A stretch of DNA of 64,000 bases from an uncultured Verrucomicrobiae bacterium. Its GTDB lineage: Bacteria; Verrucomicrobiota; Verrucomicrobiia; Chthoniobacterales; UBA10450. The DNA lies in the NCBI GenBank assembly GCA_963815455.1, contig CAWFGO010000001.1, positions 32,001 through 96,000 of the forward strand. Reading direction: 5' to 3'. Each line of letters begins with the position of its first letter. Within the stretch, counting starts at the first letter, position 1. The position numbers and the translations under genes are program-made. This document shows, in pieces, positions 43,810 through 54,127 of the stretch. The notes beneath the pieces are model-generated. The model searched no databases. It was given only the letters and a program-made list of their open reading frames with translations, and was not told where the DNA came from.

Positions 43810-45110
<1,301 letters not shown>

Positions 45111-45119
45111 GGCGCAAAT

Positions 45120-45260
45120 TATGAATGACGAATGACGAATGTCTAATGACGAAGGAACGACGAAATCCGACTGGCCGAAACTGCCATGGACAGTTTGATG
45201 TCGTATCATGCGACATCAAACTGTCCTAAGCGCTTAACTTCATTCGGGCTTCGTCATTTT
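45120..45260. repeat. Heptamer repeat element enclosing a 16-bp perfect inverted repeat
   Basis: GAATGACGAATGACGAAT arm; GGACAGTTTGATGTCG/CGACATCAAACTGTCC at 45188-45226. Confidence 0.8.
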
Positions 45261-48659: not shown

Positions 48660-49172
48660 GTGAGACGATCAGCAATCTGGTCGAGTTTCTGCGCAATTGG
48701 AGCGCTCCTTTTCGCGGCGCAGCTTTCCCGCGCTTCCGCGCAAATTGTCGAAATCGTGTCCAGCAACGATTGGAACGCCGCGGCGGTCCGCCTCGAGATC
48801 AGTCGCAGTCAGCGTCAGGTGACGTTGTATCGCGGCCCAATCCAGATCAAAAGCTATTCAGTGGCGATTGGTCGTCCCGGCTGGGAAACACCGACAGGAA
48901 AGTTTCACGTTCTCCAGATGCAAAAGAACCCGACTTGGAAGCATCCACTGACCGGCGAAATTTTTGGCGCGGGCGATGAAGGCAATGAGCTTGGGCAGTA
49001 TTGGATCGGATTTTTGACGACCAGCAAGGGCGCGATTGGATTTCACGATACGCCGCATCCGGAAACAGTTGGAAAAGCGGTGTCGCACGGTTGCGTGCGA
49101 ATGTTCGAGGACGATATCGCGGATTTGTTCCGGCAAGTCCGCGTCGGCACACTTGTCACCGTCGTGCCATAA
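48660..49172 (+). CDS. L,D-transpeptidase (YkuD family)
   Basis: VAIG..ETPTG.F, IGFH, SHGCVRM. Confidence 0.92.
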   Translation: MRRSAIWSSFCAIGALLFAAQLSRASAQIVEIVSSNDWNAAAVRLEISRSQRQVTLYRGPIQIKSYSVAIGRPGWETPTGKFHVLQMQKNPTWKHPLTGEIFGAGDEGNELGQYWIGFLTTSKGAIGFHDTPHPETVGKAVSHGCVRMFEDDIADLFRQVRVGTLVTVVP

Positions 49173-49228: not shown

Positions 49229-51238
49229 TCACCACAACGCCTGGACCGGATTTGGCGGATGAATCAATTCCGGCGGCGGCGGACTATCTTTGAGATAATT
49301 ATCAACTGCTTCCTTGCTGGCGTCGTCGATGTTCTTGCCCGCCTCTCTTTCGGCCTCGTGCGCTTTTTCCGCGACTTTCTCTGCGTTACGCAAATTGCCC
49401 ATCGCGCTCTTACCGTCGTCGGTCTTGCTGAAATCCTGTTTAAAATCGTTCTCGAGCTTCTTCAATTGATTATCGAGTTTCTTAAACGCGTCTTTGTCGG
49501 CGCCCGTCGCGCCAGCAGCCTTGGCTTTCTTCTCGGCATCATCACGCTGACTTTTCAAGTCGTTATAGCTTTTCTTTTGATTGAGGAACTCCTTGAACTT
49601 CTCGTTGTAATTATCTAAAGCCTCGTCTTTGAGCTGATCGGTCCAGCCAGCCTTAAACTTCTTCTCCAGCCAATCGGCAAACGGATACTCTTTTAGAAAT
49701 TTGTCCCACCAATCGAATCGGTAAACGTAACCTTTTTTCTTTTTGCCCTTTTTATCCTTCTTATCCTTTTTCGGTTTCTCTTTTGTTCCGGGGCCGGGAG
49801 TTGGCGTGTCGTTTGAAATATTGACGGTTGTCCCTGTCGCCAATTCTTCCTCCTCCGGTTCTTCCAGTTCCTTGGCCTTGGTCGAAGTCAGTTCCACTTT
49901 TTCGAAGATCGTGTCGATGCCCTCGTCGACTTTCTTTTTCGTCTCCGGCTTCATCGGCCCTTTTTCTTCGATTTGTTTGTAGACGACTTTTTGAAGGTCT
50001 TCTTTCGTAGCCGGAGTTGAGCCCGTGATTTGGCAGATTTGTGGGTCGCTCCAAACGCTCCACTGAATCACGATGTCCTTCTGCTTTTGCTTATCGTGGT
50101 AGGGCAATTCCTTGAGCTTGCCTTCTTTTTGCAATTCCTCGGCGGCATCGTACTTGGAACTGGCCAGCCGAAGCATCTCGTTTGCATCCTTCGGCCGGAG
50201 ATGCGAGCCGGCCATTTGCGTCGGGCCCCCTTCATTGATCACCAGATCGCCAGTCTCGCCTTTGCCGACTGGCGGTTTGCTTCGGTCGAGACAAACCCCA
50301 TCCATCGGCACTGTTTTGCTCTGGTTCGGACCAAGCTGAACCATCTGTTCCTTCGGACAGGCGTAATGCTGATTCTTCCCGCTGCTAGATTCCAACACCA
50401 TCGCCGGAATGACAAAGCTGACCGCCTGGTTTGTTAGGTTTTGAATTCTGCAATCGGCAATGTGGCCGATGGTTGCGCCGGTCCCAGCCAGTTCCAAAGC
50501 GACGGTCTTCTGACCAAGCAGCAAAGAAAGCGTTTTCTCCGGAGCTTTCTCAGACGAGGGCGACGGAGATCGCGTTGGGCTCGGTGATCCCTCCAAAACT
50601 AATCCGGCCGATCCCCATTTTTTTTGCAAATCACCCAGAAACGCACCGAGTTTGGGGAAACTGTTCGGATCGGACACCATGCCTTCCGAGTTTTCCCATT
50701 CTCCCGTCTTAGGATTCCGTTGCTGCGTTTTCCAAACGTCGGTCTTCCCGTCCTCCCAACCTTCAAAGGAGTATGTGACCCCAGTCGCAGGATTTTTCCC
50801 GCTCGAATCGTAGGTTTGAAAACGATCGTAAAGCATCGTGCCATCTTTGGTTGAGAAAACCTGATCCGTCTTTGACTGAAGAGTCTTTCCATCTTTCAGA
50901 TAATTGTAAGTGGTGACCGTTGTTCGATTCGTGTTTGGGTTCGACTGAACAAACACCGCCATCGCCAGCTTTTCCTGTTTCTTTCCAAATTTGACCCACT
51001 CGATCTTGGTAAGGTTTCCGTCCTTGTCCCGAGTCGTCCGCTTCTCACCAGTGCCAACAAAGGGCCCACTTTGAATACCGTCTTTACCGAAACTCACCCT
51101 TTCACTCGCGGTCGTGCCGCCGTCCAGGTTTTTTGTAACTTTCGGTTCGTCGCCGCAAACGGAAATGACGAGGCCAAACCAGCTCAGAGCGAGCAACACC
51201 CGCCATGCTCCACCGGATGCAGGGCTATTTGAACTCAT
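49229..51238 (-). CDS. Secreted multidomain hypothetical protein (operon gene 4)
   Basis: 669-aa ORF with signal peptide; central domain paralogous to the C-half of 51235-52758; ATGA overlap. Confidence 0.85.
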   Translation of the reverse strand: MSSNSPASGGAWRVLLALSWFGLVISVCGDEPKVTKNLDGGTTASERVSFGKDGIQSGPFVGTGEKRTTRDKDGNLTKIEWVKFGKKQEKLAMAVFVQSNPNTNRTTVTTYNYLKDGKTLQSKTDQVFSTKDGTMLYDRFQTYDSSGKNPATGVTYSFEGWEDGKTDVWKTQQRNPKTGEWENSEGMVSDPNSFPKLGAFLGDLQKKWGSAGLVLEGSPSPTRSPSPSSEKAPEKTLSLLLGQKTVALELAGTGATIGHIADCRIQNLTNQAVSFVIPAMVLESSSGKNQHYACPKEQMVQLGPNQSKTVPMDGVCLDRSKPPVGKGETGDLVINEGGPTQMAGSHLRPKDANEMLRLASSKYDAAEELQKEGKLKELPYHDKQKQKDIVIQWSVWSDPQICQITGSTPATKEDLQKVVYKQIEEKGPMKPETKKKVDEGIDTIFEKVELTSTKAKELEEPEEEELATGTTVNISNDTPTPGPGTKEKPKKDKKDKKGKKKKGYVYRFDWWDKFLKEYPFADWLEKKFKAGWTDQLKDEALDNYNEKFKEFLNQKKSYNDLKSQRDDAEKKAKAAGATGADKDAFKKLDNQLKKLENDFKQDFSKTDDGKSAMGNLRNAEKVAEKAHEAEREAGKNIDDASKEAVDNYLKDSPPPPELIHPPNPVQALW

Positions 51239-52758
51239 GGCTTCGGCTCTTCCTTTTTTTCGTCGACCGGCTGGTTTTCGCCTTTCGCCTCTTTCCCGGT
51301 CAGCTCAACGTTCTGGAAGAGATCGGGCGTCTCTAGTTCTTTCGCCTTCTCGCCCGTGATCTCAATCTTTTCAAAGATCGTGTCAATGCCCTTGTCGATC
51401 TTCTTCTTGGTGGCGGAGCTTGGTGTCCCTTTTTCCTCAACCTGTTTGTAGACGACCTTCGTCAGGTCTTCTTTTGTTGCCGCCGGCGTTTTTGAGATCT
51501 CGGAAATTCGCGGGTTGGTCCAGGTGGTCCATTGAAGCAAAATTTCCCTCTGCTCCTTTTTGTTTTTGTAGGGAAAATCTTTGAGCTCACCGCTTTTCTG
51601 AACCTGGTCCACGGCGTCGTAAATCGACTGGCAAATTCGCAGCAAACCGCCGGCGGCCTTCGCCGTAATATGACAATCAGAATGTTGCGCGACGCCGGGA
51701 TCGACCGTGTTCAGCACGAGTTCGCCGCTGCCGCCTTTTTCCACCGGCGGCTTGTCCCGATTAATACAAACGCCTTCCAACGGGACTATCTTGGTTTGAT
51801 GAGGCGTCAGCGTGACCTCCTGCGGCTGGGGACAGGCGTAGTCCTGGTTCTTGCCGCTCTTCGATTCAAGGAGGAGGGCCGGGATGACAAAAACCAGCGA
51901 GCCATCCGACAAGTTTTGCAGTTTAAGGTCGGCCACATGTCCGATCGTTTCGCCGGTGCCAATCGTTTCCACTTTAACTTTCTCGGGCTCCTTCCCACTT
52001 CCATTCGAATGCGACAACACATCCATCGGCTGAGCGGTAATAAAGAGGAGCAGGTTGCGCTTGTGTGGGGGATCTTTCACGAACAGCCCGCCCAGCACGG
52101 GAATTTGTCCTAGCCCGATCGTAACATCGTTAGTCGATTTCTGTTCGTCCTGGGCCCGCTGCTGGGGTTCATTTCCTGTTACCGACTGAATCCTGGGATT
52201 GAACGTCATTTCCATGCTGCCATCTGCGTTCACCCGCGGCTTGATCTCCAGAATGAGCCCCCCATCTGAAAATCCGACCGATTGGGGGACGTAAACGTTC
52301 GCCGGCTGATTGCTCGGAATCGTAATAACCGGTTGCGCAATTACGTTGACGCCCTTCTCGTGATCGAACGCCTTCAGAATCGCGTCAGATTGCTCGCGCG
52401 TGAGCAGGCCAGTGAGGTTGATGTTGCCCGGTTCCGCATCGTCGGGGAAAAACCGCTGGTCAATGATTTTAGTTGAGGGAGACGCGCCCAGACCCAAAGC
52501 CGTCGCCTGCGACGAAGAGAGGTTCGACGCATCGGAAGACAATTTCCCAAGCGCATCAGCAATGCGCGCGTCGATCCCCAATTCGCGCGTCGTGTTTCGA
52601 CTCACCTCGACAAGCTTGGCTTCGATCTGTACCTGCGGCGTCAACGTTTCGGCAAAGGTCAATTGGCCGAAGAAGAGGCAGCTGGACGCAACAATGGTGC
52701 CGGCGGCCATGAACAGGCGCACAACCGCGATCCGAACGTGCGATGTTGTCGCCATCAT
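51235..52758 (-). CDS. Secretin-core domain fused to an uncharacterised domain (operon gene 3)
   Basis: QVQIEAKLVEV..ELG, VIAQPVI, GLILEIKPRV, LGQIPVLGGLF, NLLLFIT. Confidence 0.82.
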   Translation of the reverse strand: MMATTSHVRIAVVRLFMAAGTIVASSCLFFGQLTFAETLTPQVQIEAKLVEVSRNTTRELGIDARIADALGKLSSDASNLSSSQATALGLGASPSTKIIDQRFFPDDAEPGNINLTGLLTREQSDAILKAFDHEKGVNVIAQPVITIPSNQPANVYVPQSVGFSDGGLILEIKPRVNADGSMEMTFNPRIQSVTGNEPQQRAQDEQKSTNDVTIGLGQIPVLGGLFVKDPPHKRNLLLFITAQPMDVLSHSNGSGKEPEKVKVETIGTGETIGHVADLKLQNLSDGSLVFVIPALLLESKSGKNQDYACPQPQEVTLTPHQTKIVPLEGVCINRDKPPVEKGGSGELVLNTVDPGVAQHSDCHITAKAAGGLLRICQSIYDAVDQVQKSGELKDFPYKNKKEQREILLQWTTWTNPRISEISKTPAATKEDLTKVVYKQVEEKGTPSSATKKKIDKGIDTIFEKIEITGEKAKELETPDLFQNVELTGKEAKGENQPVDEKKEEPKP

Positions 52759-53126
52759 TACTCTTTGGGCGATGTCGTCGCAGAATTATCCGATGAGGCT
52801 ACGTTCTTTGCTTTCTTTCCCGTTAACTTCACACCGATAAAAGGATTGGATTCGCCCGTGTTGGTCTCATTCTTTTTGGTTCTGGATCTATCGTGACTCT
52901 GGGAAGTGGACGATCCTTCCGACACAGCAAAAGGATCGGCCTCGCGCTTGCGCTGACCCACACCGCCAAGATCGACACTCCCGCCAATTCCGACGCCGCC
53001 GTGGCCGCCGCCATGCCCGCCCTCTTTCCCCTTACCGCCCTTGCCGCCGCACCCGCCAAAAACGTTTCCGCTGAAAATCAAAACGCCCGCCAGAACACAG
53101 GCAACGAATCTGGTTGTTTGTTTCAT
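52758..53126 (-). CDS. Small Gly-rich secreted protein (operon gene 2)
   Basis: Signal peptide; AGGAG/AAGGA RBS; TAATG coupling to the next gene. Confidence 0.75.
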   Translation of the reverse strand: MKQTTRFVACVLAGVLIFSGNVFGGCGGKGGKGKEGGHGGGHGGVGIGGSVDLGGVGQRKREADPFAVSEGSSTSQSHDRSRTKKNETNTGESNPFIGVKLTGKKAKNVASSDNSATTSPKE

Positions 53127-53142: not shown

Positions 53143-53673
53143 CTATTTGGCCAGAGAGGTCAGCGGCAGGACAACCGCTTGTCCGCCCGGTAACACAATC
53201 TGGAGTTTCTTTTCGGCCGTGAAAATTTCCTTCGGCCAATCGACTTTTGTGTAAGCGTAATCCCCTTTCGGTCCGAAAATCTTGTTCAGGTTAACGCCGA
53301 CGCCGGCGCCGTGAAGCCCCGAGGTGCCGCCGTATCCACCAACCGATACCGGGAGGCCGGTATTCTCTTCATGTCCCACTTTGCGATCCTCGCGAAACAC
53401 TGGTTTCGCCGCGGCGCCGCTCTTGTCGATCAACGCGATTTGCCCGGGCTTAATCAGCTTCTTATCCGCGCCGGAAACACGAATGATGATTCGCGTATTC
53501 TCCGGCTTGGCTTGATGCAATGTGTCGCCGATGGTTTCGATTGTGTAAGCGCCGCGTTTGGCCGTGTTATGCACCGGTGTGAGCGTGCCGCCCTTTCGCG
53601 AGCCCGCCTCGACCTGAAAATCGACAATCAATCCGGCAAGGAACAATGCGACGGCAATAGATACTTTTCTCAT
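53143..53673 (-). CDS. Secreted hypothetical protein (operon gene 1)
   Basis: GGAGG RBS; signal peptide ending VEA. Confidence 0.8.
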   Translation of the reverse strand: MRKVSIAVALFLAGLIVDFQVEAGSRKGGTLTPVHNTAKRGAYTIETIGDTLHQAKPENTRIIIRVSGADKKLIKPGQIALIDKSGAAAKPVFREDRKVGHEENTGLPVSVGGYGGTSGLHGAGVGVNLNKIFGPKGDYAYTKVDWPKEIFTAEKKLQIVLPGGQAVVLPLTSLAK

Positions 53674-53952: not shown

Positions 53953-54023
53953 GCGGGTGTAGTTCAATGGTAGAACGGCAGCTTCCCAAGCTGCATACGG
54001 GAGTTCGATTCTCCTCACCCGCT
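53953..54023 (+). tRNA. tRNA-Gly (CCC)
   Basis: Acceptor GCGGGTG/CACCCGC, anticodon arm GCAGC-TTCCCAA-GCTGC, T-loop GTTCGATT; CCA not encoded. Confidence 0.96.
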
Positions 54024-54127
54024 CACTTTGCTTTCATCGCCGCCGATTTGGAGTCGCTCGCACAACGTCCGCGAAGTGCTCAAGGTCGGATGACTCCGCG
54101 TCCTTCGTGACCTTTGTCGAGGTTCCA

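Follow-up and report, generated by a model that had tools for sequence, protein, structure and literature searches.

A trimmed secretin core joined to a thioester-domain-like module in predicted exported proteins of Chthoniobacterales

Described secretins and thioester domains, and the fusion protein

The secretins that have been studied are gated membrane channels. Several compact or reduced members have been described. Mitochondrial GspD, of the miT2SS, lacks N0–N3, the S-domain, and a portion of its C-domain, yet still oligomerizes and conducts; its N-domains are found as separate proteins of a T2SS-like system, it forms pores, and it retains the two transmembrane strands on either side of the amphipathic helical loop (AHL; PMC8134430). 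The AHL and its two flanking transmembrane strands, which make up the membrane lip, are described as essential for insertion (PMC8134430). The Tad secretin RcpA of P. aeruginosa (8odn) and phage pIV (7ofh) are compact secretins. RcpA forms rings without N3; it keeps an N-domain, Gates 1 and 2, the AHL, and the lip, and needs the pilotin TadD (PMC10499894).

The second comparison is with bacterial thioester domains (TEDs) of class I/II (SfbI, Cpa, CpTIE 5a0g, BaTIE 6fwv; PF08341), in which a conserved Cys lies on a strand and three motifs are recognized (PMC4450167, PMC6194298). In these two papers and in a preprint (10.64898/2026.02.05.703941), the hosts are Gram-positive, and the passages considered make no mention of permutation.

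The window analyzed here, a 64,000-nucleotide stretch of DNA from an uncultured Verrucomicrobiae bacterium, contains a gene (P0001; 51235..52758, minus strand) for a fusion protein of 507 aa that consists of a signal peptide, a trimmed secretin core, a TED-like domain, and a short tail. Residues 1–36 (52651..52758, minus strand) resemble a Sec signal peptide by sequence, hydropathy, and comparison with aligned relatives: The strongest hydrophobic stretch of the protein starts at residue 10, cleavage motifs of the type FAD, LAD, or VAE are aligned in the relatives, and we infer that cleavage is likely between TFA and E (36/37). Two modes of anchoring were considered and rejected. Lipoprotein anchoring would require a lipobox, which is lacking here and has its pattern in 7 of 225 relatives, and a PEP-CTERM pattern was found in none of the 225.

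The secretin-derived core (residues 41–246, 206 aa; 52021..52638, minus strand) is followed by 261 aa. It contains the motifs QVQIEAKLVEV (42–52), ELG (59–61), VIAQPVI, GLILEIKPRV, LGQIPVLGGLF (216–226; 52081..52113, minus strand), which is the remnant of an AHL motif, and NLLLFIT. The TED-like domain, called domain X below (residues 259–478, 220 aa; 51325..51984, minus strand), comprises a β subdomain and a helical bundle.

Origin and trimming of the secretin core

A preliminary description of this DNA had proposed a secretin origin for the core, and the searches bear this out. Pfam Secretin matched it above cut-off (E 2.8e-7; 30.7 bits vs. 27.5), phmmer matched it with PilQ and GspD chains (best E 5e-4), and all 30 of its atlas matches belong to the Secretin set. 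TIGR02517 also matched (E 1.2e-17), yet far under its whole-protein cut-off, and the seven NCBIfam secretin models that matched were all under theirs. The core strands are present in an AF2 model of the fusion protein (mean pLDDT 79, pTM 0.70). With this model, the best 17 Foldseek rows were all secretins (best E 9e-5), at low TM-scores of 0.16 or less, and secretins also formed the top rows in VIA, where the core matched RcpA 8odn with the best rmsd (3.4 over 91 aligned residues, Z 6.8). By these modest structural scores, the modeled core corresponds to the two-sheet β-sandwich of the secretin double barrel. LGQIPVLGGLF is modeled as a β-strand paired with the last strand, and residues 54–103 as short helices.

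The source genome encodes three intact secretins elsewhere: one of the Amuc_1098 family (G000:C1:635480-638254; 797 bits with NF042912, above cut-off), one PilQ-like, and one GspD-like. An HMM built from 23 cores matched the first best, with E 3e-33; the PilQ-like paralogue reached 3e-18 and the GspD-like one 4e-11, and PilQ and GspD were rejected as donors. The signature AIDALLFP..PG..LSGVFTDPQFQ is common to the cores and to the genome's Amuc_1098-family secretin. Sequence comparison thus assigns the core to an Amuc_1098-type secretin as its source. The Amuc_1098 family (NF042912) is the closest sequence donor; it shares with the cores its strand spacings and the signatures of the first strand, the helix, and LFP..PG..LSG..T.PQ.Q. 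Unlike such a secretin, the fusion lacks all periplasmic domains and about 140 aa of the core itself (gates, lip, and part of the cap), its core is joined to domain X, and it scores 41 bits against an NF042912 cut-off of 750.

A database search with the fusion returned 107 proteins. Twenty-two of them, the query included, align over 82–100% of the length and one more is a truncated copy; the rest share residues about 259–478 only. A domain X profile retrieved 643 cluster representatives at E ≤ 0.001, and six further carriers of the whole core were found among the 150 matches listed. The core alignment therefore holds 29 copies, P0001 and 28 relatives, and the relatives number at least 28. The core starts at residue 21–61 in 27 of the 28; P0011 begins inside it. 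The other intact copies have open frames and 41–59% identity, and P94, F104, P105, Q123, P143, and P174 are invariant or nearly so across the alignment.

Spans of the core were compared with six parsed Amuc_1098-type sequences out of 10 (canonical anchors). They were assigned to gates and lip partly by what we take to be the strand order in GspD. Secretin anatomy as given in PMC6155069, PMC10499894, and PMC8134430 was also used. The spacings of the sandwich base equal those of the donor type (19 aa in 28/28 and 20 aa in 29/29), and this base, the portion that is kept, makes up the hydrophobic core within the secretin sandwich (PMC6155069). The cap region is 23–65 aa long, compared with 87–97 aa in the donor type, and Trp after ELG-x-D is kept in one of 28 cores. 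That segments between the motifs are shortened, as the preliminary description had stated, applies to the gate-1 span (25–32 vs. 61–79 aa) and to the span from gate 2 to the last strand, which covers gate 2 and the lip (46–69 vs. 115–128 aa); gate 2 is reduced by about 25–45 aa. Both gate hairpins are cut in all 29 copies. None of the 29 carries N-domains, and their absence is not peculiar to one assembly, which would have spoken against that description, as the same core occurs in at least 28 other proteins.

The lip is not at full length (AHL and two transmembrane strands) in any of the 29 copies. The AHL is missing from 14; another 14, P0001 among them, have an AHL-like motif without the preceding strand, and P0141 has both in shortened form. 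The cuts fall in two registers, at the similar words G[QE]T..LGG and LGD.P.LG. In a core tree that includes the over-long core of P0020, and with the lip types of P0115 and P0141 set by eye, the two types are interleaved and need 4 changes, at least 2 of them forced by starred branches; 0% of 200 bootstrap trees had 1. The cut is therefore likely to have arisen more than once, and the interleaving suggests repeated trimming, although the same interleaving could come from recombination among members of the array.

The preliminary description had left open whether the secretin was repurposed or degenerate. Repurposing fits, and degeneration sits poorly with a Nei-Gojobori dN/dS of 0.20–0.37 for the core in the six unsaturated of 10 pairs. 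Core saturation affected the four pairs that include L039; low dS (0.15) was found only for L036–L037, with dN/dS 0.34. The corresponding values for domain X were 0.09–0.17. The fusion core is under purifying selection.

Domain X as a candidate thioester domain

Domain X matches the three TED motifs described in PMC4450167 and PMC6194298, save that the Gln motif comes first. The candidate thioester Gln is Gln305 (51844..51846, minus strand), present in 237 of 237 domain copies, and the candidate thioester Cys is Cys331 (51766..51768, minus strand), present in 238 of 239. The third motif, Q409-x-x-x-W413 (51520..51534, minus strand; Q in 225/233, W in 232/232), lies within a modeled helix (400–414); the leading T of TQxx(hydrophobic)W is not conserved. 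Cys331 is preceded by V in 168 of 239 copies and by Y or F in 37, and positions +1 and +2 fit the TED motif [YFL]C-hydrophobic-polar. Distant members have G[YF]CTD and YQ.Y, like motifs in PMC4450167. These motifs also occur in proteins of 570–1100 aa with two tandem domain X copies (P0184, P0190, P0192, P0197–P0199, P0201, P0202, P0206, P0207, and similar), of which P0192 has an eCIS core domain.

As in TEDs, the conserved Cys is on a strand, the Gln motif is on a neighboring strand, and the modeled domain has a β lobe and a helical lobe (AF2 pLDDT 94.7). The Q-x-x-x-W helix follows 78 aa after the Cys, compared with about 60–75 in canonical TEDs. In contrast to TEDs, the Gln strand precedes the Cys, which would amount to a circular permutation, there is no Pfam match, the host has two membranes, and the domain is often internal or C-terminal, without stalk repeats or a recognized anchor. 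A two-membrane host alone is not unique, since canonical PF08341 domains are found in 2 of 151 genomes of the class. A canonical-order TED (YCTD, LQLAIW, SQGLL) with a PEP-CTERM-like tail is encoded in a genome of the same class (L118:1198-2016, minus strand).

In VIA, TED structures made up 7 of the best 50 rows with the whole fusion protein and 4 of the best 50 with domain X alone. In the latter run they were the sole rows that spanned both subdomains (112–131 residues aligned), at Z 5.4–6.1 (5a0g: Z 6.1, rmsd 3.5), which is level with unrelated partial matches. Covariation in 232 rows arranged strand 305–312 antiparallel to segment 326–334. The Gln strand is placed beside the Cys strand because the two strongest pairs were 308–332 and 306–334, the second of which was absent from the whole-domain run. 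The same register sets Cys309, found in 140 of 237 copies and in 27 of 28 secretin-fused copies, opposite Cys331; a Cys309–Cys331 disulfide could for that reason be a real rival to the thioester. Analysis of Cys co-occurrence, which is confounded by relatedness, gave no disulfide partners.

Profile methods gave no link to TEDs. PF08341 had no match in the 22 aligned copies, and its best E was 0.05, in one of 41 further relatives; NF012162 reached E 0.08 in one of 40. Comparison of domain X by hhalign with canonical TEDs, seven sequences only, was negative (probability 0.1–1.2%). Foldseek with domain X alone had no match at E ≤ 0.001, and no TED was among its rows, a PDB profile search gave nothing meaningful, and the atlas held only leads below 0.9, ARPP-1 at 0.81 among them. 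We consider it probable that domain X is a circularly permuted thioester domain, one without sequence-profile support. If so, it would add a permuted class to a family characterized in Gram-positive adhesins, and it would imply that Chthoniobacterales, common inhabitants of soil, use covalent chemistry for attachment.

Module exchange, the locus, and possible roles of the fusion

The preliminary description had treated the tail of about 260 aa as a passenger of the secretin. The relation is the reverse: What the family conserves is the tail, and what it exchanges is the secretin piece, carried by 29 of 178 full-length domain X copies. N-terminal parts longer than 60 aa among the 107 homologues fell into 19 BLAST clusters, one of them secretin-like and some metalloprotease-like. 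A FastTree of the 178 full domains grouped 29 of 29 secretin-bearing copies in one starred clade of 40 rows, of which 11 carry another module (5 changes); this is consistent with a single secretin capture and later exchange of modules. In this large family of proteins, exported by prediction and encoded at a tRNA-Gly locus of Chthoniobacterales, modules are shuffled and domain X is conserved. In P0152, the first secretin strand has left only the remnant QVAIEARF, between signal peptide and domain X. In P0219, a fragment with a secretin AHL and last strand (residues about 236–270; Pfam Secretin E 0.1) lies inside domain X, between the Gln and Cys strands; the family may here have captured secretin sequence a second time, independently.

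Fourteen related genome loci belong to Verrucomicrobiae, Chthoniobacterales, Ca. Udaeobacter or Chthoniobacter, with one in Planctomycetota. Occurrence is patchy: A full-length match was present in 1 of 40 relatives, domain X in 0 of 300 other genomes of the phylum, and the secretin core at 1 of 14 genome loci and 3 of 79 metagenome loci, which are mostly short. Searches for stand-alone cores (30–277 aa) and for long forms (889–2535 aa) found none, which is weak evidence. The literature covered, mostly open papers in their main texts, holds no account of this protein family or of permuted TEDs.

The explanation that we favor, although it could equally well prove wrong, is that the core is a secretin fragment that has been domesticated, forms no pore, and serves as one among many interchangeable modules attached to a domain for covalent adhesion. 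The fusion protein would be exported by Sec and its signal peptide cleaved; it may then stay in the periplasm or pass out through the GspD-like secretin of the host. The core would fold as a soluble secretin β-sandwich base with helical caps, which its cut membrane lip would keep from inserting as a barrel, and would act as a rigid stalk or clustering module, possibly through side-by-side association by inherited strand edges. Cys331 and Gln305 would form an internal thioester that reacts with Lys or another amine on a target in the cell envelope, a biofilm, or soil.

A more elaborate arrangement, which we think unlikely, is a soluble membrane-free secretin ring, or a guest subunit in the host's pilus secretin, bearing a 12- to 15-fold crown of permuted thioester harpoons. 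With this crown, the diversifying array of an abundant soil bacterium would include a multivalent adhesin or cross-linker that bonds covalently. A four-copy complex prediction of the core (residues 37–250, 29-row alignment) scored 0.00, outside its calibration, and counts neither for nor against assembly.

It is slightly more doubtful that the core is a generic monomeric filler, that is, a β-rich spacer, decoy, or specificity determinant whose secretin-type contacts go unused. At least 19 unrelated types of N-terminal module take the same position, the 11 rows with another module lie in the very clade of the fused copies, P0152 keeps just a first-strand-like remnant, and selection is weaker on the core than on domain X. 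Against this, the exact strand spacing and the invariant or near-invariant residues indicate structural constraint, though a monomer would need the same.

The locus bears on another reading. The start of a downstream paralogue (49229..51238, minus strand; 669 aa) overlaps the fusion stop; its domain X is 54% identical and its N- and C-terminal modules are unrelated, and no domain X was found in the source genome beyond these two genes. Upstream are genes for two small proteins with signal-like starts, a Gly-rich one of 122 aa (52758..53126, minus strand), whose stop overlaps the fusion ATG, and one of 176 aa (53143..53673, minus strand). The latter is the most regular array partner (39 of 79 domain-X loci; 57–80% identity among 33 aligned copies) and its conservation (mean column identity 71%) exceeds that of domain X; a family scan and a PDB profile search gave it no Pfam or PDB match. 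A tRNA-Gly(CCC) gene (53953..54024, plus strand) marks the locus, also in 33 of 79 metagenome loci. In the relatives, one to four domain-X genes and the two accessory genes lie between PBP1a/tRNA-Gly(CCC) and a pilin-like gene/serS. No sigma-70-like promoter was found, nor an excess of terminators.

The operon partners have no family match, and the only part of a secretion or pilus gene cluster nearby is the pilin-like gene, on the opposite strand; no full-length secretin was matched at the 79 metagenome loci. It is rather improbable that the core serves as a docking module. In that role it would join, or attach to, the ring of the host's own Amuc_1098-type secretin, and would thereby bring domain X to the pilus gateway or disturb the gateway. 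The same genome does encode an intact secretin of the donor family, the inter-subunit strands are what is retained, and the pilin-like gene flanks 25 of the 79 loci. However, that gene accompanies all domain-X genes, fused or not, and the cores have diverged (41–58% whole-protein identity), whereas in the corresponding strands the donor family appears to vary hardly at all.

The first option of the preliminary description was a minimal pore. A minimal ungated pore, or a membrane-seated ring displaying a crown of domain X, is in our view quite improbable, and on sequence grounds the core is very probably not a pore, because in each of the 29 copies the strand-AHL-strand lip is cut, as are both gate hairpins. 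The argument lies in the lip and gates and not in the missing N-domains, since secretins without N3 or without all N-domains form rings or pores. All base strands are kept with exact spacing, an AHL-like motif is present in 15 of 29 copies, P0001 included, and truncated mitochondrial GspD and N3-less RcpA provide precedents (PMC8134430, PMC10499894). Mitochondrial GspD, however, keeps the transmembrane strand-AHL-strand element (PMC8134430), which is cut here, at full length in 0 of 29 copies and with the AHL gone from 14. A pore with both gates cut would also stand open, no pilotin-like or S-domain-like partner was recognized in the gene cluster, and 149 of 178 full domain X copies do without the core, so that domain X does not need this module. 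Residues 54–103, the modeled short helices, could bind membrane.

A pseudogene remnant or assembly chimera, for which one might cite the patchy occurrence and the 0 of 300 other phylum genomes with domain X, is refuted by the 28 other intact homologues at 41–59% identity, with open frames, dN/dS far under 1, and a conserved locus, and we regard it as highly implausible.

Both parts come from known families, of which we treat them as variants and not as members: The core departs from secretins in its N-domains, gates, and lip and in lying outside a machine, and TED profiles did not match domain X, whose motif order also differs. The donor assignment, the map of deletions, the distinction of two types of lip cut, and the test for selection are new in this analysis. 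The fusion core is a part of a secretion machine reused outside the machine, and the 29 sequences form a natural series, with the sandwich base only and the lip cut in two ways, in which base folding, oligomerization, and membrane binding can be tested.

The motif F..V.LTG..AK ends domain X and recurs in the tail of the fusion and several relatives (51235–51330); it also ends the 122-aa accessory protein and its homologues (52758–52870). It could serve as a docking tag or offer the Lys with which the thioester reacts. A gene for an L,D-transpeptidase (YkuD; window positions 48660–49172) converges on the array, likewise at L021 and at 6 of 79 metagenome loci. YkuD on one side and PBP1a on the other are gene-order hints of a cell-wall target. 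Between 43810 and 47869, what we take to be serS (43810–45209) and a DUF4126-like membrane gene, together with the gene before the pilin-like ORF, appear split over several frames. Since the relatives have single ORFs there, this suggests indel errors of the assembly, which leave the secretin-fusion operon unaffected.
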